From Tequatrovirus BCH953P4: 64,000 nt of DNA. Below the pieces are notes generated by a model. It had not been told where the DNA came from. It ran no database searches and worked only from the letters and a program-made list of their open reading frames with translations. The stretch is taken from sequence record OZ035789.1. One strand, given 5' to 3'. Of this stretch, positions 8,225-60,146 are shown one piece after another (the first letter of the stretch is position 1; each line of letters starts with the position of its first letter). The translations under genes were made by a program, and so were the position numbers.

Positions 8225-9184
8225 TCACTTCCACTGCATTTCACATGCTAATTGAATGAAAAGATAAGCTAAATGTAATTCAGTGTTAGCTGCAATTCCA
8301 TGATACTGATTATTTTCACCAACAATTTCGTACATACGAATAATACTTTGCGGAGTTACACGTGAATAGATTTCTTCGGCAAGTTTACCCACAAACCACG
8401 AATAATCAGCCGCATATTTTGGTGCTAAAGCTCTGAGTTGTTTAACATCTTTATTTTTGAGAGACTCAAGAACATCATCAATAGCACCACGATCGTTAGT
8501 AACCAGTGATAAAATACCAGCATCCAAAACACCTTTAGATGAATAACTATCGAGCTCGCCAATAGTTTTACGAAAATCAGGAAAATTCTTTTTAACCAAA
8601 GCTGCTACAACTTTCATATCAGCTATAGCAATTCCTTCATGCTTGCAGATTTCAGTCAATCGACGAATCATCTGCTTCATCATTTCAATTTTATCTTCAT
8701 CGGTCGGTTGACCGAATGTAATAACTCGGCAGCGTGACTGAAGCGGTTTAATAATACCATCAATATTGTTAGCAGTAATAATAATACTACAGTTTGAACT
8801 ATAAGCTTCCATAAAGGAACGAAGATGTCGCTGAGATTCTGCTAAACCTGAACGGTCAAATTCATCAATAACAATTACCTTTTGACGACCATCAAATGAA
8901 GCTGCACTCGCAAAATTAGTTAAAGGACCACGAACGAAATCAATTTTACAATCTGATCCATTCACAAACATCATATCAGCATTTACATCATGACACAATG
9001 CTTTTGCTACAGTTGTTTTACCTGTTCCTGGAGAAGGAGAATGAAGAATAATATGTGGAATCTTACCTTTACTTGTAATAGATTTAAAGGTTTCTTTATC
9101 AAAGGCGGGAAGAATACATTCATCGATAGTAGATGGACGATATTTCTGTTCAAGAATGTGTTCTTTTTCATTTACGGTAATCAT
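8225..9184 (-). CDS. 44: clamp loader ATPase subunit (AAA+, RFC-like)
   Basis: 319 aa from MITVNEKEH; Walker [11 protein letters not shown]; arginine finger SRC. Confidence 0.9.
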
Positions 9185-9216
9185 AATTTCCTCATTCAAG
9201 TTTTAGTGTAAATTAT

Positions 9217-9235: not shown

Positions 9236-9922
9236 TTAAAAATCGTGGGTAGAATCAGCTTCAAGAGCTACCACATAATTCGCGTGTTCACCTTCAAATT
9301 TAGCAGCACCTTGTTTACCTTTTGCCCAGAGCAGAAGTTTATAATTTCCTGGTTGCATTTTCATATTTGCCATATTGATAATGAAATTAAATGTATTTTC
9401 ACCATCATAATCACCAAGAGTCAAAGAATATTTAACACGGGTCAGAGCAGAATCTTCTACTTTATTAAAACCGTTAATTACGATTTTACCTTCTTTTACT
9501 GTGATAGCAATTGTATCAATCTGCAGACCGCGAGATACACGCAACAGCTGTTGAAGGTCTTCAGCTTTAATTTCGGTAACAACAGATGCTACCGGGAATG
9601 GAATTGGTTTATTAGGAGCAACTACTGTACTCGGATCGGCTGCTGGCCAAAAAATTGTTGAGCGAGCATCAGCAATTTTAATATTTCCATCTTCTGATTG
9701 CGAAATTTCTGCATCATCATTAACTAGAGACAGAATACCGAGAAAACCGTTCAAATCGTAAATTGCTACATCAAAATCAATAACGTCAGAAATATTTGCT
9801 TCCGCATAAGTTGTACCATTAACTGCGCGAGTCATAATAAATTGACCGGATTTAAGCATAATACCGGAGTTAATAGTAGCGAAATTTTTCAAAATATTCA
9901 GTGTGTCTTTAGATAATTTCAT
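9236..9922 (-). CDS. 45: sliding clamp
   Basis: 228 aa as in T4 gp45; position upstream of 44/62. Confidence 0.9.
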   Translation of the reverse strand: MKLSKDTLNILKNFATINSGIMLKSGQFIMTRAVNGTTYAEANISDVIDFDVAIYDLNGFLGILSLVNDDAEISQSEDGNIKIADARSTIFWPAADPSTVVAPNKPIPFPVASVVTEIKAEDLQQLLRVSRGLQIDTIAITVKEGKIVINGFNKVEDSALTRVKYSLTLGDYDGENTFNFIINMANMKMQPGNYKLLLWAKGKQGAAKFEGEHANYVVALEADSTHDF

Positions 9923-10806
9923 TTCAATTTCCTATTTACATAATAGTTAGACCAGGACCGTACAGCACCCTGATAAGATTCGTCGTTAAACCCATTAGCT
10001 ACTGCAATTTTACGAAATTTATTATAACTCGGTTTTCCGTAAGCATGCCATAAAGATTTTAATTCATCTTCATGTTCAATCCAAGTTCCTCTAGCTTTAG
10101 ATTTTCTAAATTTTGATTTGAATTCCGGTGAATTATTTCTAACAGTTGCTTGAATTGAAGCCCTCTGTCTTCTTTCAGCATTATTCCATAACTCTTTTTG
10201 AGATTTAGAAATTTTTGATTTTACACTTTCTGAATTCATTATATCACTAAACTTTTTAGCATAACTACAATCAAGATATTTCAATTTCATCTTATTTGAA
10301 AGTTTAAGCTTTTTCTCATCGGTCCAGTGATTCTTCATTGAATTAGATATTTTGTATTTTACGTCAGAACTATGTTTGTAACCTTTACGAATACCAACAT
10401 AATCGGGCGTAATTTCAGATTGCGAAAGCTTTACAATTTTTCCAGTTAAAACATTTTTATATGTTCCATATCCTTTAGCGCCAATTAAAGTATTTTCATC
10501 TGCGTATGCTTTATTAAAATATTTTATATTACTTTTTGCTTTAACTTTTAATTGAAAAAATCTTTCCAATTTTCTTGGATCTAATATAGTTTCAGCTAAA
10601 ATTTTGACGGTATATTTAGTGGTTTTAATAAGCTCAAAATATTCATCGCTATAACTCGATGACACGCTTCCAGTATAAATCTTTCCAGCTGAATCAATTA
10701 TATTTGTTCCATCGAAAATTGCGTCAATTTTCGAACCTATATAATAACATGGAAAAATATTTTTAGCTTCCCGCTCTGGAAAGCTAATAAGATATACTAA
10801 ATTCAT
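9919..10806 (-). mobile_element. free-standing GIY-YIG homing endonuclease (Seg-like), inserted between rpbA and 45
   Basis: 295 aa; N-terminal VYLISF...CYYIGSK GIY-YIG motif; lysine/serine-rich C-terminal DNA-binding-like repeats; 4-bp overlaps with both neighbours. Confidence 0.7.
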
Positions 10807-11192
10807 TTATTAAAATCAGCTGCGATTGTTTCGGCAACAATTTGAGCAGCAACAATCAGACGTTCATCTGCATTGCCGCAATATTCATCTTCAAGGCGTT
10901 CACCACATGAAGTCATAATAAATTTAGCACCGGCGTTTAGGGATTCTGTAGTATGTTTGCGCATTAGTTCAATCCATTTATTACTTACTTCACGATCGAT
11001 AGCTTCATAATACGCATGACGAGCAGGTGCAGATTTAATTTTGTTCTGAATAACTTCCATTGCGTTATCAGAAAGAGACAAAACCCATGCTCGACGAATT
11101 TTATTTTGGTTTTGTGGATTTGATTCAGAACGCACGTGTTTTGGCTGAATATCTTTTACATCAACAGTATAATTCACAGTAATTTTAGTCAT
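10803..11192 (-). CDS. rpbA: RNA polymerase binding protein RpbA
   Basis: 129 aa as in T4 rpbA; position between 46 and 45. Confidence 0.75.
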
Positions 11193-11201
11193 AATACACC
11201 T

Positions 11202-11393
11202 TTAGTCATAATAATCAGTGACAGTCCAAGCTTCATTTCTATTGGACATTATTTTTGTATATTCTGCTTTAAATGCATTCCTAAGCATAGATTCAGTAAC
11301 TATATGCTCTTCATTAGAAAAATTATTTCTCAGAATATATCGTTTTATTTCAGGAATAGTTAATAGATGCTGTCCGGTTGAATATTCTGCCAC
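11202..11393 (-). CDS. small hypothetical protein (45.2 position)
   Basis: 63 aa ORF, syntenic with T4 45.2. Confidence 0.5.
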   Translation of the reverse strand: MAEYSTGQHLLTIPEIKRYILRNNFSNEEHIVTESMLRNAFKAEYTKIMSNRNEAWTVTDYYD

Positions 11394-11403
11394 AATTCCT
11401 CCG

Positions 11404-11411
11404 TATAAATA
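11404..11411 (+). promoter_or_regulatory. late promoter TATAAATA upstream of the plus-strand HNH endonuclease
   Basis: exact TATAAATA octamer 34 bp upstream of the ATG at 11445. Confidence 0.5.
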
Positions 11412-11444
11412 TGTTTATCACTCGCTGTATCAAAAGGATATGTT

Positions 11445-12161
11445 ATGAATTATAAACTAATTTATGAAAAGTTAATCTCTAATGCTAAATCTCGAAAACT
11501 TGATTGCTATACTGAATCTCATCACATTATACCACGCTGTTTAAATGGCAGCGATGATGCTTCAAACTTAGTAGATTTAACACCAGAAGAGCACTATGTA
11601 GCTCATCAACTTTTAGTAAAAATTTATCCTTCTGAACCAAAATTAGTATATGCTGCTAACATGATGACAGTTTCCACGAAATACGCTAAACGCAACAATA
11701 AAACTTTCGGTTGGATTCGTCGTAAACTCTGGGAAATAGAAAAGAACAAAGAATTCTCCCAGGAGACACGAAAGAAAATGTCTGATGCAGTAGCTAATAA
11801 AGCAAGACTAACTTGTCCTCATTGCGGTAAGTCTGGATTAAGCGGGAATATGAATCGTTGGCATTTTGATAACTGCCCAAATCACCCTAATCCTAAAGTT
11901 AGACCACCAATGTCTAAAGAACACAGAAATAATATCTCAAACGGGCTTAAAGCAATCGTTCTTGAAGAAACATCTTGCGAATTCTGCGGAATGATAGGCA
12001 AGAAATGCGTTATCGCAGCGCATAGAAATTTCTGCAAGAAAAATCCAAATGGACGCAAGAAAACTGAAAAGACTGGTACTTGCGTCCATTGTGGTAAAGT
12101 TACCACTTTCGGAAATTTATCAAGATGGCATAATGATAACTGTAAATATAAACCTAGCTAA
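11445..12161 (+). mobile_element. free-standing HNH homing endonuclease (Mob-like) with three C-terminal CxxC...H...C zinc modules; opposite strand to all neighbours
   Basis: 238 aa; ESHHIIPRCLNGSDD...NLVDLTPEEHYVAH HNH motif; repeats TCPHCGKSGLSGNMNRWHFDNC and TCVHCGKVTTFGNLSRWHNDNC. Confidence 0.8.
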
Positions 12162-13842
12162 TCTTAGCTAAACTAAATCTACCAACTTTTTCCATCTGAA
12201 TATGCTGACCATATTCTTGTGGGTCATGGTCTTTATGCGAAATTATGAAGAAGTTGGTATCCTTCAAACCATCTAAAATTTTAGCTACATTTTTAATACC
12301 TTCAGCATCAAATGCACCGTCATACACTTCATCAAGAAATAAACAACTTATTTTAACACCTGAAACTTTTTCAGCAATATCACGCCAAGTAAATAAAAGA
12401 GCAATATCAATTCGTGCTTTTTCACCTTGACTGAATGAAGCATAACTAAAATCTTCACGACCACGGGATTTAATTGTCTCATTAAATTCTTCATCTAATG
12501 TAAACACATAATCCGCTTCCATTATTTTAAGATAATGGTTAATCTGCTTATTAAATAATGGAATGTACTTTTTAATAATAGCACCTTTAATACCAGAATC
12601 TTTGAGCATATCAGTCAAAATTCCTCGGTGGTATTTTTCCATTACTAAATTAGTTTTTGTCTTAACAATTTTATCAAGTTCTTCTTGAAGCAGTGCTATT
12701 TCATCAGCATGGTCAATAAACTCAGAAGATGCTTTTTCTATAGCCGCTTTAACCTTTTTAGCTTTATCTACTGCTGCGATCAAAGATTGCTTTTTATTGC
12801 GAATATCATTTGCCAACGACTGTTGGGTTTTAATATTATCTCGGTATTCATCAACAAGAACTTTTAAATTATCACGATGTGTTGAAAGCTGTTCAAACGA
12901 ATGCGTACATTCAGAAACTTTATCTTTAATTTTAGAAACAACTTTATCACCGGAACTCAATTGTGACAAACAGGTTGGACATAATCCACCTTCGTGATAC
13001 ATATTAATGACTTTATTATACGAGTCAATTTTTGATTTAATTAAAAATGCTTCTTGACCGATTTTATTAAATGCATCAGTTGGGTCTTCGTCTAAAACAA
13101 TATTAACTAATCTTTCATTAGCTTCTTCTATTTCCGATTTTAGCGTTCTAGCTTCTTTTGCCAAATCATCATACATATTTTGCAGACGAGTAAGGTTGTC
13201 ACCCGTTAATTTTTTCTGGCGTTCAACGTTATCATTATATATTTTAATTTGTTGGATAATACTATCTTTTTTAACATCAAGCACTTGGTTCTGCGAATTT
13301 AATTCGCGTATTAGTGCTTTATTAAGCTTATCCATTTCAGCTAATGTTCCTACCTCAAGCAGGTCTTCCACAAGCTTTCTTCGCGCAGGGGTCGACAAAC
13401 CCATGAAAGGGGTATACCCTGCTGTACCAAGGACAACAATCTGCTTGAAACTGGCATATGACATTCCGATAAGCTGTTCAAATTCTGCTTGGAAATCTTT
13501 ACTGCTGGCAGATTCATTAAGACGTGTACCGTTAACGGTGATTTCGAAAACGTTTGGTTTTTGTCCTCTTTTGATATAGTACTTTTTCTCATCATATTCC
13601 ATCCACAGTTCAACTAAAAGTTCTTTCTTATTTGTGCTGTTTATTAATTGACCTTTCTTTACATCACGAAATGGCTTGCCAAAAAGCCCAAACGTGATGG
13701 CTTCTAGCATAGTAGACTTACCACCGCCATTTCGTCCAGTAATAAGAGTTTTTTGAACCTTATCTAATTGAATGTCAATCCCATTTTGACCAACTGACAT
13801 TATATTTTTATATTTTACTCTATTAAGTTTAAAATTCTTCAC
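12154..13842 (-). CDS. 46: recombination nuclease subunit, SbcC/Rad50-like ATPase
   Basis: 562 aa; Walker A GRNGGGKST; long coiled coil; C-terminal signature and Walker B. Confidence 0.92.
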   Translation of the reverse strand: MKNFKLNRVKYKNIMSVGQNGIDIQLDKVQKTLITGRNGGGKSTMLEAITFGLFGKPFRDVKKGQLINSTNKKELLVELWMEYDEKKYYIKRGQKPNVFEITVNGTRLNESASSKDFQAEFEQLIGMSYASFKQIVVLGTAGYTPFMGLSTPARRKLVEDLLEVGTLAEMDKLNKALIRELNSQNQVLDVKKDSIIQQIKIYNDNVERQKKLTGDNLTRLQNMYDDLAKEARTLKSEIEEANERLVNIVLDEDPTDAFNKIGQEAFLIKSKIDSYNKVINMYHEGGLCPTCLSQLSSGDKVVSKIKDKVSECTHSFEQLSTHRDNLKVLVDEYRDNIKTQQSLANDIRNKKQSLIAAVDKAKKVKAAIEKASSEFIDHADEIALLQEELDKIVKTKTNLVMEKYHRGILTDMLKDSGIKGAIIKKYIPLFNKQINHYLKIMEADYVFTLDEEFNETIKSRGREDFSYASFSQGEKARIDIALLFTWRDIAEKVSGVKISCLFLDEVYDGAFDAEGIKNVAKILDGLKDTNFFIISHKDHDPQEYGQHIQMEKVGRFSLAKIS

Positions 13843-14102
13843 AAAAGATTCCTTTTAATGTATCTTTTAGACCATTCTATCATATCATCATAATCTAAAA
13901 AGTATTCATCAAATTCAGCCATGCAAACAACACCTTGCGCTGTTTTTGATGTGATATAAATTATTCCAACATATCTAGAATCTTCTTCGGTATAATTAAT
14001 GTTTGCTATGAATTCATCATTAATGTCAAATGTCGAAAACTTCACAGTATGCATCCTTAATACAAGATACAGCCATATCTCGTAATGATTTAGGTGTGTC
14101 AT
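13839..14102 (-). CDS. small hypothetical protein (46.1 position); true start uncertain
   Basis: 87 aa ORF overlapping the next ORF by 77 nt in another frame. Confidence 0.4.
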   Translation of the reverse strand: MTHLNHYEIWLYLVLRMHTVKFSTFDINDEFIANINYTEEDSRYVGIIYITSKTAQGVVCMAEFDEYFLDYDDMIEWSKRYIKRNLL

Positions 14103-16742: not shown

Positions 16743-17537
16743 CTACGAATAGGCCCAAACATATCCATAAGCAATTTTGCTTTTTCCAGATATACACTTT
16801 TTAATATTAGACATGCATCCTTTAACGGATACAGCTGCGTCTTTAATTTTAGGAAATACTCGTAATAATTTTCCAGTAGTATCATATTGAAATACTGGCA
16901 CATTTCTTTTCTGAGTTATCCCACGTTTAGATTTAGACATTTTTTGTTTAGTTGCATTAGACATCCTAGAGGGCTTTCCTATGTTATCAGAATAATAATA
17001 TTTCCATTGAAATCCTCCAGCGGTTTTCCTTTTCCCATCTACACATTGTTTAATTGAACTTGAACAGCTATATGACATATCTTCTGCAGCATCTGTAATA
17101 CATCTATATTTGCGAATAAAATTTCCATTTAAATCATATTGATAAATTGGTTTTCCAGCATTTCGTCTAGCGTTAGACATGTATTTTTTATTATCATCAT
17201 CTTTCCAGAACTCTTTCATGCCTTCCGATATTGAGGAAGATACAGCTGTTTTAATCCATCCATACATTTTATTATTTAGTCTTGTTCCGTCAGAACTATA
17301 ACACATCATACGAATAGCTAAAGCCAATTTAGGAAGTCTATAAATTTTAAATAATAATAAATGCGCGGTAAAATGTTCTTCTGGTGTCAAAAGAACTAAA
17401 TTAGTTTTATCATCTGTACCACCCATACATCTAGGAATTATATGATGAGTTTCAGTATAGTATGTCAAAAGACTTTTATCATTGCCTCTGTTTAGTCCTT
17501 TTTCGATCAGTAAATTATATATGTTTAAATAATTCAT
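16743..17537 (-). mobile_element. free-standing HNH homing endonuclease (Mob-like) with two tandem C-terminal repeat modules
   Basis: 264 aa; TETHHIIPRCMGGTDDKTNLVLLTPEEHFTAH HNH motif; repeats IKQCVDGKRKTAGGFQWKY and IKKCISGKSKIAYGYVWAY; N-terminal paralogy to the ORF at 11445. Confidence 0.8.
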
Positions 17538-21296: not shown

Positions 21297-21767
21297 TTAA
21301 TCATGTTTCCACACCCCATCGGTATTTGACCAAAGTCGCTGATTATCTGATCCTCGCCACAGCTTTTTGGTCGGAAGATTTTTCTCATACTTCCCATCAA
21401 TAATAACATCAACATATTTAAGCATTTCTAGTTGTTTAATATCTTCAAACTTATATCCTGTCCACAACCAAATGCTTTTATTGGGATAAAGATTTTTAAT
21501 AGTTTGAACCACAGAGTGAATCACGTCTCTGTTATCAGGATAAAGAGGGTCACCTCCGGTTATAGTCAATCCTTCTATATAATCATTATTCAAACATTCA
21601 ATTAATTGTTCTAGTGTTTCACCAGTGAATGGAACACCATTTCTAGCATTCCATGTTGATTTATTATAACACCCTTCGCATTTATGCAAACAACCTGTAA
21701 CGAAAAGAACGACCCTGCATCCAGGGCCATTCACAAAATCACAGGGATAAAATCTATCGTAATTCAT
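21297..21767 (-). CDS. nrdG: anaerobic ribonucleotide reductase activating protein (radical SAM)
   Basis: 156 aa; CxxxCxxC cluster (GCLHKCEGCYN); immediately downstream of nrdD. Confidence 0.88.
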   Translation of the reverse strand: MNYDRFYPCDFVNGPGCRVVLFVTGCLHKCEGCYNKSTWNARNGVPFTGETLEQLIECLNNDYIEGLTITGGDPLYPDNRDVIHSVVQTIKNLYPNKSIWLWTGYKFEDIKQLEMLKYVDVIIDGKYEKNLPTKKLWRGSDNQRLWSNTDGVWKHD

Positions 21768-23095
21768 TGGTGTTTAACCCTATGCATGATTTCTTTGTTT
21801 TTACCGAGATTAAATCCGCGTTCGTTCGGGTTTCCAAGATATCCGCATGTTCTTCTTATGGTATTCATCTTTTTAGGATCAGTTTCTCCACAAATAGAAC
21901 AAACAAATCCGTTTTCAGTAGGAGTCATTTCATGGGTACTTCCGCATGTAAAACATTTATCTACCGGCATGTTAACACCAAAATAATCTAAATGTTGTGC
22001 AGCATAATCCCATACGGCCTCAAGGCCTTTTAAGTTATTTTTCATATCAGGAAGTTCAACATAAGAAATGTGACCACCTGTCGCAATGAAATGATATGGC
22101 GCTTCACGAGAAATCTTTTCAAACGGAGTAATATTTTCTTCTACTGAAACATGGAAACTGTTAGTGTACCAGCCTTTATCGGTAACATCTTTTACACTTC
22201 CATATTTTTCTGTATCAAGTTTACAGAAGCGATAACAAAGGTTTTCAGCAGGAGTCGAATATAAACTAAAAGCAAATCCAGTTCTTTCAGTCCACTGTTT
22301 AAGATGAGCATTCATCTTAGTTAAAATTTCTTGTCCAATATCACGACCGACAAGAATATTCAATTCGTGAATACCAATGTATCCTAGGGACACTGAACTT
22401 CTACCGTTTTTAAATAACTCAATTATGTCGTCATCAGGTTTAAGACGAACCCCGAATGCACCTTCTTGGTAAAGAATAGGAGCAACAGTAGCTTTAACTC
22501 CTTTTAAGGAACTAATTCTACACATCAAAGCTTCAAAACATAAATCCATTCGTTCATTAAATAGCTCAACAAATTTCTGTTCATTGAACTGTGTTCCAAT
22601 ATAAGAATCTAACGCAATGCGAGGAAGATTCAGTGTTACAACACCAAGATTATTACGTCCATCAAGAATTTCATTACCAGTTGAATCTTTCCATACGCTC
22701 AAGAAACTACGGCAACCCATTGGAGAAACAGGAACAGATGAACCAGTGATAGCTTTATTGTTTTTAGCTGAAATAATATCAGGATACATCCTTTTGCTTG
22801 CACACTCTAGAGCAAGCTGCTTAATATCATAGTTCGGATCGTCTTTATAAAGATTAACACCTTCTTCGACGAACATAACAAGCTTAGGAAAAATAGGAGT
22901 TATCCCATCACGACCGAGACCTTTAATACGATTTTTCAGAATTGCTTTCTGAATCATTCGTTCAGTCCAGTCAGTTCCCGTACCAAATGTAATTGTTACA
23001 AAAGGTGTTTGTCCGTTAGAGCTGAAAAGTGTATTTACTTCATCATTATATTCAGCATGAGTCGCAAATTCATGCCCGTTTATATGAAACAACAA
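21764..23095 (-). CDS. nrdD: anaerobic ribonucleotide reductase NrdD, exon 2 (C-terminal part with glycyl-radical motif RTCGYLG); 3' splice site not resolved
   Basis: 443 aa ORF ending in the glycyl radical motif; upstream part continues in the ORF at 24081..24626 across about 1 kb containing an endonuclease ORF. Confidence 0.85.
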   Translation of the reverse strand: MLFHINGHEFATHAEYNDEVNTLFSSNGQTPFVTITFGTGTDWTERMIQKAILKNRIKGLGRDGITPIFPKLVMFVEEGVNLYKDDPNYDIKQLALECASKRMYPDIISAKNNKAITGSSVPVSPMGCRSFLSVWKDSTGNEILDGRNNLGVVTLNLPRIALDSYIGTQFNEQKFVELFNERMDLCFEALMCRISSLKGVKATVAPILYQEGAFGVRLKPDDDIIELFKNGRSSVSLGYIGIHELNILVGRDIGQEILTKMNAHLKQWTERTGFAFSLYSTPAENLCYRFCKLDTEKYGSVKDVTDKGWYTNSFHVSVEENITPFEKISREAPYHFIATGGHISYVELPDMKNNLKGLEAVWDYAAQHLDYFGVNMPVDKCFTCGSTHEMTPTENGFVCSICGETDPKKMNTIRRTCGYLGNPNERGFNLGKNKEIMHRVKHQ

Positions 23096-41299: not shown

Positions 41300-41477
41300 C
41301 TAAACGAATAGGTTCATGAATGCCATATCCCTGAACAGAAATTTCTGTAGTAGGATAAATTCCATCAATATCACCCATGTTCCATGCTTCGTTAAATTGC
41401 TGTTCGCCTGAATTACTAAACCATTCGGCAAAAGCATTTAGCACATCTTCAGAACCTTCAATAATTATCTTTGCCAT
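41256..41477 (-). CDS. small acidic hypothetical protein
   Basis: 73 aa ORF. Confidence 0.45.
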   Translation of the reverse strand: MAKIIIEGSEDVLNAFAEWFSNSGEQQFNEAWNMGDIDGIYPTTEISVQGYGIHEPIRLVEYDLCTGEEVKYD

Positions 41478-41839
41478 TACAAACTCTCGGTAAAGGTACG
41501 AGCGATAACATCGCGCTGCTGTTCCGGAGTCAGAGAGTTAAAGCGAACTGCATAACCGGATACACGGATGGTCAGCTGCGGATATTTTTCCGGATGCTTA
41601 ACTGCATCTTCCAGAGTTTCACGACGCAGAACGTTAACGTTCAGGTGTTGACCACCTTCAATTTTAACTGTAGGTTGTGTTTCAATTTCAATTTCACGGG
41701 CGTGCAAACCATAGAAAATTTCTGGGTCTACAAAAGAGTCCTCTTTAAAGGTTTTAGAGACAATAATTCGCGCTTGAATACCATCTTCAAAATAAATAGT
41801 ACCTTTATGCGTGCCTTCAAGAATTTGATATGCTTTCAT
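41477..41839 (-). CDS. autonomous glycyl radical cofactor (GrcA/YfiD-like; T4 Y06I type)
   Basis: 120 aa; C-terminal RVSGYAVRF glycyl-radical motif; C-terminal 60 aa recalled as essentially identical to E. coli GrcA. Confidence 0.85.
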
Positions 41840-41846
41840 ATAAACC

Positions 41847-42173
41847 TCAATTAGAAAATAAATTTATCCAAGATTGTTCTTTAATTAAAAATGGCTCAGA
41901 ATCATATGCCATTAAACTCTGTGTGATTAGTCCTTTAAAAGGCCCATCAATAAATTCCATGGTAAAATATGGAATTTTATTCATTAGCCGTGCATTAGGA
42001 GCAGTACATAAAACTCTGCATCCTTTGAATACACCCTTTTGTAATTTGTATTGCTTGGGATAAAATTCGCTCAAAATGTTATTATTCGCTAAAATTTCAA
42101 AATGATTCACCAATTTATTTTTAATAGTTTTTGGTGAAAAATAGAGATATTCGAAAAGCTGTGCGTCTGTCAT
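41847..42173 (-). CDS. hypothetical protein (start at internal Met)
   Basis: about 108 aa; the ORF-track N-extension overlaps the upstream gene. Confidence 0.45.
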
Positions 42174-48015: not shown

Positions 48016-48069
48016 CTTATTTCCTGTTTTAATTCGTGGATTTAATATACTACTATATTTATACCAAAA

Positions 48070-48093
48070 AGCCCCAACCTTTCGGTCGGGGCT
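48070..48093 (-). terminator. 10-bp GC-rich hairpin, copy 2 (GAAA loop on the transcribed strand)
   Basis: agccccaacc-tttc-ggtcggggct; same flanks as copy 1. Confidence 0.5.
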
Positions 48094-48099
48094 AAGCCT

Positions 48100-48400
48100 T
48101 GCGGCAACCTTGTCGAGGTTCCACCTGCTAAGGCAAGTGTTTGTACGAAACGCCGGGACTTGAACCCGGTTATTAAGTAGTTGACGCTACTCAATATTTT
48201 TAAAAGGCCATATCTCGACCATATCCGAACGTTCCGTCAAAAACGCTACTCGGCTTACGGCAAAGATATTTCCTCGAATCGATAATTCGGTGCGCCGTTT
48301 CTGCTGTGATGTAAGAGGGCATTAGCAGATCGTAAAGATTTGTTAATGCCAGTCCTTAAACAGGGAACATCAGTCCGACGACTTACCGGTAGCGACCCGG
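48100..48400 (-). ncRNA. candidate small stable RNAs (T4 species 1/2 type) between tRNA-Arg and the internal-protein gene
   Basis: 300 nt with no ORF; GC-rich; T-arm-like ccgggttcaagtccc on the minus strand; T4 carries two stable RNAs at this location (recalled). Confidence 0.35.
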
Positions 48401-58163: not shown

Positions 58164-60146
58164 ATGGCAAATACCCCTGTAAATTATCAATTAACAAGAA
58201 CAGCAAATGCTATTCCCGAGATATTCGTCGGGGGTACGTTTGCTGAAATAAAACAAAACCTCATTGAATGGCTTAATGGCCAAAATGAATTTTTGGATTA
58301 TGATTTTGAAGGCTCAAGATTAAACGTTCTGTGTGACCTTTTGGCTTATAATACATTGTACATTCAACAATTTGGTAATGCTGCTGTGTATGAAAGCTTT
58401 ATGCGTACTGCTAACTTACGAAGTTCAGTTGTTCAAGCTGCGCAAGATAACGGATATTTACCTACTTCAAAATCAGCTGCGCAGACTGAAATTATGTTAA
58501 CTTGTACAGACGCATTGAATAGGAATTACATTACTATTCCTCGCGGAACTCGCTTTTTAGCATATGCAAAAGATACTTCTGTTAATCCATATAACTTCGT
58601 TTCTACCGAAGACGTTATTGCTATTCGTGATAAAAATAACCAATATTTTCCGCGTTTAAAATTGGCCCAGGGACGTATAGTAAGAACTGAAATCATTTAT
58701 GATAAATTAACACCTATTATCATTTATGATAAAAATATTGATAGAAACCAAGTTAAATTATATGTTGATGGAGCGGAATGGATTAACTGGACGAGAAAGT
58801 CAATGGTTCATGCTGGTTCAACATCAACGATTTATTATATGCGTGAAACTATTGATGGAAACACTGAATTCTATTTTGGCGAAGGTGAAATTTCTGTTAA
58901 TGCTTCTGAAGGAGCTTTGACCGCTAATTATATCGGAGGTCTTAAACCTACTCAGAACTCTACAATTGTTATTGAGTACATCAGTACTAATGGTGCTGAC
59001 GCGAACGGAGCAGTCGGATTTTCATACGCAGATACATTAACAAATATAACTGTCATCAATATTAATGAAAATCCAAACGATGACCCAGATTTTGTTGGGG
59101 CAGATGGCGGCGGTGATCCAGAAGATATTGAGCGTATTCGCGAATTGGGTACTATTAAACGCGAAACCCAGCAACGCTGCGTAACTGCAACTGACTATGA
59201 TACATTCGTTTCAGAAAGATTTGGTTCTATTATTCAAGCAGTTCAGACTTTCACTGATTCTACTAAACCTGGTTATGCATTTATTGCTGCTAAACCTAAA
59301 TCAGGATTGTATTTAACTACTGTGCAACGTGAAGATATTAAAAATTATCTCAAAGACTATAATTTAGCTCCTATTACGCCATCAATTATTTCTCCTAATT
59401 ATCTTTTTATTAAGACTAATTTAAAAGTCACATACGCTTTAAATAAGCTGCAAGAATCCGAACAGTGGCTCGAAGGTCAAATAATTGATAAAATTGATCG
59501 TTATTATACCGAAGATGTAGAAATTTTTAACTCGTCTTTTGCCAAGTCTAAGATGTTGACATATGTAGATGATGCAGATCATTCTATCATTGGTTCATCA
59601 GCGACAATTCAAATTGTTCGTGAAGTACAAAACTTCTATAAAACGCCTGAAGCAGGTATTAAATACAATAATCAAATAAAAGATCGTTCTATGGAATCTA
59701 ATACGTTTTCATTTAATTCTGGACGAAAGGTTGTAAATCCTGATACTGGTTTAGAAGAAGATGTATTATATGACGTTCGCATAGTATCAACAGACCGAGA
59801 TTCTAAAGGAATTGGTAAAGTTATTATTGGTCCATTTGCTTCTGGCGATGTTACAGAAAATGAAAACATTCAGCCGTATACAGGCAATGATTTTAATAAA
59901 TTAGCAAATTCTGATGGACGTGACAAATATTATATTATCGGTGAAATAAATTATCCAGCTGACATGATTTATTGGAATATCGCTAAAATTAATTTAACAT
60001 CTGAAAAATTTGAAGTTCAGACCATTGAATTATATTCTGACCCAACCGATGATGTTATCTTTACTCGCGATGGTTCACTGATTGTATTTGAAAATGACTT
60101 ACGTCCACAATACTTAACTATCGATTTGGAGCCTATATCACAATGA
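58164..60146 (+). CDS. 6: baseplate wedge protein gp6
   Basis: 660 aa as in T4 gp6. Confidence 0.9.
   Translation: MANTPVNYQLTRTANAIPEIFVGGTFAEIKQNLIEWLNGQNEFLDYDFEGSRLNVLCDLLAYNTLYIQQFGNAAVYESFMRTANLRSSVVQAAQDNGYLPTSKSAAQTEIMLTCTDALNRNYITIPRGTRFLAYAKDTSVNPYNFVSTEDVIAIRDKNNQYFPRLKLAQGRIVRTEIIYDKLTPIIIYDKNIDRNQVKLYVDGAEWINWTRKSMVHAGSTSTIYYMRETIDGNTEFYFGEGEISVNASEGALTANYIGGLKPTQNSTIVIEYISTNGADANGAVGFSYADTLTNITVININENPNDDPDFVGADGGGDPEDIERIRELGTIKRETQQRCVTATDYDTFVSERFGSIIQAVQTFTDSTKPGYAFIAAKPKSGLYLTTVQREDIKNYLKDYNLAPITPSIISPNYLFIKTNLKVTYALNKLQESEQWLEGQIIDKIDRYYTEDVEIFNSSFAKSKMLTYVDDADHSIIGSSATIQIVREVQNFYKTPEAGIKYNNQIKDRSMESNTFSFNSGRKVVNPDTGLEEDVLYDVRIVSTDRDSKGIGKVIIGPFASGDVTENENIQPYTGNDFNKLANSDGRDKYYIIGEINYPADMIYWNIAKINLTSEKFEVQTIELYSDPTDDVIFTRDGSLIVFENDLRPQYLTIDLEPISQ

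Follow-up and report, generated by a model that had tools for sequence, protein, structure and literature searches.

Why does one gene in the early region of a T4-like phage point against all the genes around it, what does it encode and when would it be read? We addressed these questions in a 64,000-nucleotide stretch of Tequatrovirus BCH953P4 (sequence record OZ035789.1; hereafter the window), in which an HNH gene is located between genes 45.2 and 46. The surrounding region was 96–98% identical to Tequatrovirus (T4-like) phages and its features are collected in Table 1. The original prediction, made from the letters of the window, described the gene as the only one on the plus strand in about 55 kb of minus-strand genes. 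Greedy tiling of the ORFs bore this out, with no other credible plus-strand ORF before 55031. The single ambiguous case, at 41471–41854 (+), was rejected as the shadow of a minus-strand Gly_radical gene. The segment singled out in that prediction begins at 11394, the base directly following the start codon of gene 45.2, and an AAGGA Shine-Dalgarno sequence (11434–11438) lies 6 nt before the ATG of the HNH gene.

Table 1 Features of the HNH locus and its neighbours (positions in the window).
Feature	Position	Strand	Comment
Gene 44	8225–9199	−	
Gene 45	9236–9922	−	
Extra 295-aa ORF	9919–10806	−	Between gene 45 and rpbA, 4-bp overlap with each
rpbA	10803–11192	−	RpbA confirmed by Pfam
Gene 45.2	11202–11393	−	Gp45_2 confirmed by Pfam
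Rewritten start of gene 45.2, GTG-GCA instead of ATG	11391–11402	−	GGAGG is the complement of 11398–11402, beside the late promoter
T4 late-promoter motif TATAAATA	11404–11411	+	33 nt upstream of the HNH ATG
Leader, TTTATCA-N7-GTATCAAA plus AAGGA Shine-Dalgarno	11412–11444	+	From the alignment
HNH homing endonuclease gene	11445–12161	+	238 aa, ATG start; counterpart of RB32ORF054w
Mob-type N-terminal HNH nuclease domain, residues 1–115	11445–11789	+	H26, H27, N41, H50, H54
NUMOD3-like helix 1 (FSQETRKKMSDAVAN)	11754–11798	+	Aligns with NUMOD3 repeats of PF07460-bearing homologues; model helix 106–117
Zinc finger 1, CX2CX12HX3C	11805–11876	+	C124, C127, H140, C144; 50% identical to second I-TevIII finger
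NUMOD3-like helix 2 (PMSKEHRNNISNGLKA)	11907–11954	+	From alignment and model
Candidate middle promoter TGCTTTA-N13-TATTAT	11929–11954	−	Antisense inside the HNH gene; ~0.1 expected by chance in 717 nt
Zinc finger 2, CX2CX11HX3C	11967–12035	+	C178, C181, H193, C197; aligns with first T4 I-TevIII finger
Zinc finger 3, CX2CX12HX3C	12072–12143	+	C213, C216, H229, C233; aligns with second I-TevIII finger
Gene 46	12154–13842	−	
Gene 46 3' end travelling with the cassette	12154–12345	−	~190 bp divergent; new gp46 tail
Predicted RNA structure after the HNH stop	12155–12259	+	Hairpin and long-range stem

The HNH protein matched PHROG 655 ('homing endonuclease') at 8.6e−69. Its residues 1–115 were 43% identical to T4 MobE (E 2e−29), with no similarity beyond, and its residues 1–110 were 44% identical (E 1e−26) to the product of a MobB-like ORF at 16743–17537 of the window. 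A shared N-terminal nuclease domain combined with a protein-specific C-terminal domain is the arrangement of the Mob family. The score against Pfam HNH (16.9 bits) lay under the curated cut-off of 21.4, and a PDB sequence search and NCBIfam returned marginal HNH-region matches only (group II intron maturase, IscB). The canonical HNH motif that had been predicted was readily located in the translation as H26, H27, N41, H50 and H54. All five residues, together with the last zinc module, were invariant across 37 homologues, and the HNH residues aligned with the catalytic residues of I-TevIII. In the AlphaFold model (mean pLDDT 89, pTM 0.55), which comprised a beta-beta-alpha nuclease core and three beta-beta-alpha fingers, the His...Asn...His series of an HNH motif was carried on a beta-hairpin (strands 24–27 and 42–45) and a helix (47–60). 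Whole-model fold searches were weak, with tandem C2H2 finger arrays and HNH domains as the best matches. On the combined evidence of sequence comparison and predicted structure, the gene is a free-standing homing endonuclease of the T-even Mob/I-TevIII kind.

The C-terminal DNA-binding tail consists, in order, of a NUMOD3-like helix, a finger, a second NUMOD3-like helix and two further fingers. All three of the CxxC...H...C modules foreseen in the original prediction were present in the translation (C124/C127/H140/C144, C178/C181/H193/C197 and C213/C216/H229/C233). By motif (CX2CX12-13HX3C) and similarity these three copies are of the I-TevIII type, with spacings of 12, 11 and 12. Fingers 2 and 3 were 38% identical (E 1e−8) to the finger pair of the T4 I-TevIII remnant. 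Finger 3 is the family-wide terminal module: its four ligands were invariant in the 37 homologues, and distant homologues, which have NUMOD3 repeats in place of the inner fingers, always retain it. None of the curated Pfam families covers the three fingers. In I-TevIII, the CX2CX12-13HX3C fingers bind one zinc each and are needed for DNA binding (PMC1865063). Zinc binding by the fingers of the HNH protein is predicted from this shared type of motif.

Three other endonuclease-like genes were seen in the window. The product of an endonuclease-type gene at 2168–2809 (−) carries a C-terminal CPHCG...RYHFDKC zinc module that corresponds to that of the HNH protein (tblastn E 1e−6). DNA-binding modules are shuffled among homing endonucleases of this kind, and a terminal finger common to these two proteins fits such shuffling. 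The MobB-like HNH gene (16743–17537, −) has NUMOD1 repeats and clears the Pfam HNH cut-off. The extra ORF at 9919–10806 (−), in which NUMOD3-like repeats were recognised, matched PHROG 655 and 7504 ('homing endonuclease'); a Pfam nuclease domain was not detected in it. This insert is missing from T4 and RB32, and among database phages it occurred together with the HNH gene, with ~640 bp between the two, only in N2 and F13076.

We then examined the distribution of the HNH gene. At an identity of at least 95% it occurred in 57 phage records, in all of them between 45.2 and 46, which equates to 57 of ~500 close Tequatrovirus records (~11%; records matching the surrounding genes at 90% or more). 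Carriers included RB32, RB33, RB51, RB68 and the BASEL phage Paracelsus; T4 lacks the gene. Presence was patchy in Mosigvirus too, with 14 carriers among ~170 records. Patchy presence at a fixed site between conserved neighbours is the pattern of homing genes. In RB32 the gene is annotated as ORF054w, a 'putative site-specific intron-like DNA endonuclease, similar to mobB'. The HNH gene is therefore of a known kind, annotated since RB32 (2006) and labelled homing endonuclease in most records, and is nothing categorically new. A literature search found no paper on it or on the transcripts of a carrier phage.

Homologues at the same site and in the same inverted orientation were present in Dhakavirus KIT01, a Mosigvirus phage, Klebsiella phage Roth19 and a metagenomic contig (L017), at ~60–64% protein and 68–73% DNA identity. 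A clade of 44% protein identity (L018–L020) again had the gene at this site and inverted, so that the inverted arrangement at the 46/45.2 site is found in at least five diverged lineages. In the wider family (77 loci) most members were co-oriented with their neighbours and only 10 were fully inverted; the orientation is therefore a property of the lineage at the 46/45.2 site and not of the family as a whole. Decay to a pseudogene in close relatives, which would have spoken against the original prediction, was not seen in the relatives examined, where the frame was intact in 8/8 versions. The dN/dS of the gene was 0.07–0.2, also in comparisons where synonymous sites are near saturation, and these ratios indicate that the protein is under purifying selection. 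One record stood apart: phage Ac3 (L012, GenBank OK040907) was 100% identical to RB68 as far as the HNH start codon, and past it (L012 position 2550 onwards) identity was ~75% for over 3 kb, while the proteins hardly changed and GC rose from ~0.32 to 0.47. Judged by its sequence, this stretch looks recoded or artefactual.

T4 late promoters need gp55, gp33 and the gp45 clamp, and transcription starts ~6 nt downstream of them. The perfect late motif reported upstream of the HNH gene is indeed there: TATAAATA lies on the strand of the gene and within the ~20–40 nt upstream that is usual for a T4 late promoter. The window holds 12 copies of TATAAATA against 10.35 expected, a count that by itself is not above chance. 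All 12 copies were on the strand of the local genes, two others of them 26 and 29 nt from gene starts, and the copy before the HNH gene was the only one on the plus strand inside the 55-kb minus-strand block. Calculated from the motif count, the chance of a copy on the right strand in the 51-nt spacer was ~0.004. TATAAATA was unchanged in the Tequatrovirus version and in four of the five diverged lineages (Dhakavirus, Mosigvirus, Roth19 and contig L017); in the L018 clade it is replaced by CCTAAATA. A search for a plus-strand sigma-70 promoter upstream of the HNH gene found no promoter-like site with more than 9/12 matches nearby. Since TATAAATA is invariant in four of the five diverged lineages and the dN/dS of the gene is low, the predicted late expression of the HNH gene is well supported by comparison.

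Conservation extended past the promoter motif. The 31 nt from TATAAATA into the leader were 87–94% identical (a count made on the alignment) to the KIT01 and Roth19 versions, against 68–73% for the gene region. The leader motif TTTATCA-N7-GTATCAAA was conserved above the coding sequence across genera (L004, L005, L006, L017, L018), and TATC...TATCAAA was kept even in the clade of 44% protein identity. A leader RNA hairpin hiding the ribosome-binding site was considered and rejected, as small hairpins formed in some lineages with no consensus and with z of only −0.3 to −0.9. We also compared the leader with T4 DNA from 45.2 to gene 46, following the I-TevI model of an operator that mimics the homing site; the best ungapped matches did not exceed those of shuffled controls.

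These observations bear on whether the HNH gene is expressed at all. T4 segD, likewise inverted, is considered to be hardly transcribed (PMC2988022). Together with the chance-level count of TATAAATA in the window and the sub-threshold Pfam HNH score, this would fit a silent or decaying passenger, comparable to segD or to the truncated I-TevIII of T4, whose TATAAATA is an AT-rich coincidence or a relic. Such a passenger would not be expected to have an intact frame in all eight versions at this dN/dS, invariant catalytic residues and zinc ligands, and a promoter motif and leader conserved above the coding sequence, and we consider this explanation highly improbable.

The junctions of the gene were resolved in an alignment of eight carriers and six non-carriers, in which the whole 55-bp 46/45.2 spacer was cleanly replaced by a cassette. 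This is the part of the locus that the original prediction overlooked; it had correctly seen a plus-strand HNH endonuclease with three zinc modules and a late-type promoter, and had not recognised a mobile homing cassette. Side effects of the insertion are documented in the comparison of carriers with non-carriers: loss of the middle promoter of 45.2, a GTG start and an extra alanine in 45.2, and a new tail of gp46. The start of 45.2 reads ATG-GAA in non-carriers and GTG-GCA-GAA in carriers, so that gp45.2 begins M-E-Y and M-A-E-Y, respectively, in both Tequatrovirus and Mosigvirus. The T4 spacer (L007 5248–5302) contains a textbook middle promoter for 45.2, ATGCTTTAA-N12-TATAAT, which is lost in carriers, and the record of SA35RD, a Mosigvirus non-carrier, independently has both a middle promoter and a terminator annotated at this position. 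On its opposite strand, the T4 spacer also carries TATAAATT, a 7/8 match to the late motif, beside the gene 46 stop.

Two candidates for a replacement promoter of 45.2 were assessed. The middle promoter-like sequence inside the HNH gene (Table 1) was present in the Tequatrovirus version only, not in other genera, and is a weak candidate that possibly replaces the promoter displaced by the cassette. A conserved minus-strand element, TTGATA-N16-TATTTA, was rejected as a replacement sigma-70 promoter: its −10 is poor, and in KIT01 the start codon of 45.2 abuts it, leaving no room for a leader.

On the other side of the cassette, gp46 ends in VGRFSLAKIS in carriers and in VGRFTVMV in non-carriers. 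Fixed differences between Tequatrovirus carriers and non-carriers numbered 18 at 12168–12345, and there were none left of the start of 45.2; identity between the two groups was ~80% at 12168–12345 compared with 97–98% beyond 12400. The cassette therefore travels with its own last ~60 codons of gene 46, which span the Walker B and H-loop region. The carrier gp46 protein allele most resembled that of Klebsiella phage Roth19. A flank linked to the insertion in this way is a mark of homing genes, through co-conversion or target immunity. In Mosigvirus, the carrier-linked differences in gene 46 were limited to the last codons, and one non-carrier otherwise shares the allele of the carriers, so that the target is placed only approximately. 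The long Tequatrovirus tract may reflect only the donor lineage.

Divergence in this part of gene 46 was also seen away from the cassette. Another Mosigvirus non-carrier had 61% identity in a 100-bp patch, 100–200 bp from the gene 46 stop. The patch (L006 3350–3450 and its equivalents in L098 and L099) distinguishes two Mosigvirus phages, neither of which has the HNH gene, and coincides with the patch in which carriers and non-carriers of Tequatrovirus diverge. Perhaps it is a hot spot, either of recombination or as a target. The presence of several gene 46 alleles in one patch of 100–200 bp, in non-carriers too, would fit an arms race in which the enzyme serves mainly for marker exclusion, damaging gene 46 and its surroundings in relatives that infect the same cell. 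The carrier genome as a whole would profit, with spread of the cassette as a by-product. The molecular activity would equal that of homing, and roles beyond homing are considered possible for such enzymes in the MobE study (PMC2790892). By sequence alone this competitive role is indistinguishable from homing; clean junctions and a patchy distribution are what homing predicts, and as the main function of the enzyme we regard competition as improbable.

The convergent arrangement with gene 46 raises a further question, that of antisense transcription. The 8-bp overlap of the HNH gene with the stop codon region of gene 46, as claimed from the letters, was found at 12154–12161. It is not a conserved feature: the genes are separated by a 5-nt gap in KIT01 and overlap by 4 bp in RB68 and the Mosigvirus phage and by 23 bp in Roth19. 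By geometry, a late transcript of the HNH gene must enter gene 46 in antisense. No canonical plus-strand terminator was found after the HNH stop before 12776 (~600 nt), and an Rfam search of 10500–14000 gave nothing near any threshold. Folding predicted a structure directly after the stop, made up of a 6-bp hairpin (12155–12170) and a 13-bp stem (12180–12192 with 12247–12259), with an MFE of −31.8 kcal/mol and z of −4.75 against shuffles. The T4 allele lacks this structure (z −0.24), and substitutions in gene 46 that are specific to carriers partly build the stem. Because its rank among all windows of the genome is only the 1.8th percentile, the predicted structure is suggestive and not established. 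In the versions from Dhakavirus and Mosigvirus, a GC-rich hairpin spans the HNH stop codon, and the hairpins and structures predicted after the stop in several versions may limit read-through. In the genome-wide folding scan, the most structured 121-nt windows lay elsewhere, at 58186–58321 (+), 21625–21775 (−) and 48025–48175 (−), with GC-adjusted z of about −4 to −4.8.

It is conceivable that the inverted promoter and gene were selected mainly for a late antisense RNA covering the 3' end of gene 46, which would lower or process gene 46 mRNA at late times of infection. Convergent genes with no canonical plus-strand terminator for ~600 nt, an inverted orientation conserved in at least five diverged lineages and carrier-specific gene 46 substitutions that form a stable plus-strand structure would all agree with such a role. 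However, the overlap varies from a 5-nt gap to 23 bp, the GC-rich hairpin over the stop in Dhakavirus and Mosigvirus resembles a transcript end, the structure reaches only the 1.8th percentile genome-wide and ~89% of close relatives manage without the cassette. The protein and its catalytic residues are under purifying selection, which a purely antisense role would not require. Regulation of gene 46 as the main function is therefore unlikely.

The most probable reading, in which we place good but not full confidence, is that the HNH gene encodes a free-standing endonuclease of the Mob/I-TevIII kind in a mobile cassette, which is expressed late and nicks or cuts the cassette-less allele. Early and middle transcription of the 55-kb block would be confined to the minus strand. 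Because other transcription is on the opposite strand and there is no convincing sigma-70 site, the HNH gene would be readable only from its own TATAAATA. Transcription from this motif through gp55, gp33 and the gp45 clamp would restrict synthesis of the enzyme to late times, when replicating genomes of co-infecting phages are present. By analogy with MobE and I-TevIII, the enzyme would then nick or cut the cassette-less allele, either around the 3' end of gene 46 or within the spacer between 46 and 45.2. Enzymes of the MobE type may make nicks instead of cuts. Recombinational repair would finally copy the cassette in, together with the adjacent gene 46 sequence. The breaks that homing relies on are resected by gp46 itself, the Rad50-like nuclease subunit. 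For MobE, repair copies the cassette into the cut allele (PMC2790892).

A bolder version would make the inverted orientation a regulatory device, add tuning of the gene 46 message by the late antisense RNA, with its carrier-specific structure in the 3' end of that gene, and treat the TATC-N7-TATCAAA element of the leader as an autoregulatory operator; this combination is a long shot. If it were true, a strand left unread at early and middle times, coupled to a late promoter, would suffice for strictly late expression, and hairpins that hide the ribosome-binding site, as used by other T4 endonuclease genes, would be unneeded.

Homing by a late-expressed enzyme remains our preferred account, and the modest interest of the locus lies in its particulars: the conserved inversion with a late promoter, the disappearance of the middle promoter of 45.2, the stretch of gene 46 that goes with the cassette, a tail with three fingers and a conserved leader motif without explanation. 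It offers a clear natural example of how an invading endonuclease gene can displace a promoter, rewrite the ends of both neighbours and establish late transcription that converges on one of them. Work on the mobile DNA of T4 has discussed such effects mostly in principle; a 2010 review noted that insertion can displace promoters and create antisense transcripts (PMC2988022). Persistence at one site in at least five diverged lineages makes this a convenient system for studying the timing of endonuclease expression, the cost of antisense transcription into a recombination gene and target recognition by three fingers and NUMOD3 helices.

Among known systems, the HNH gene resembles MobE and MobB in its N-terminal HNH domain (43–44% identity), in being free-standing in a spacer between conserved genes with its target expected in a neighbouring gene, and in the differences near the insertion that are linked to the gene. 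It differs from mobE, which has no promoter of its own, is co-oriented and is served by upstream transcription (PMC2790892), whereas the HNH gene is inverted with its own late-type promoter. The MobB-like protein differs in its tail of NUMOD1 repeats, that of the HNH protein being built of NUMOD3-like helices and zinc fingers. I-TevIII, from phage RB3, is an HNH endonuclease encoded in an intron, and the T4 copy is truncated. Experiments have defined H26, H27, N39 and H48 as its catalytic residues (PMC1865063). The HNH residues of the two proteins occupy the same positions (H26, H27, N39/41, H48/50), and the C-terminal CX2CX12-13HX3C fingers are of the same type. I-TevIII, however, is encoded within the group I intron of nrdB, carries two fingers and cleaves as a dimer; the HNH gene is free-standing and encodes three fingers interleaved with NUMOD3-like helices.

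With regard to expression, the endonuclease genes of T4 tend to have middle or late promoters, segD being the only inverted free-standing case in that phage (PMC2988022). Like segD, the HNH gene is opposite to both neighbouring genes (PMC2988022). segD, in contrast, encodes a GIY-YIG enzyme in the late region, with no promoter found and terminators on both sides, while the gene described here is of HNH type, lies in the early region and is preceded by a late promoter motif that is conserved. It shares with I-TevI, which is under late-promoter control and autorepression, a late promoter just upstream and conservation around and after that promoter which exceeds the promoter's own need. The operator of I-TevI resembles its homing site (PMC2988022), whereas the leader of the HNH gene shows no above-chance resemblance to the T4 locus.
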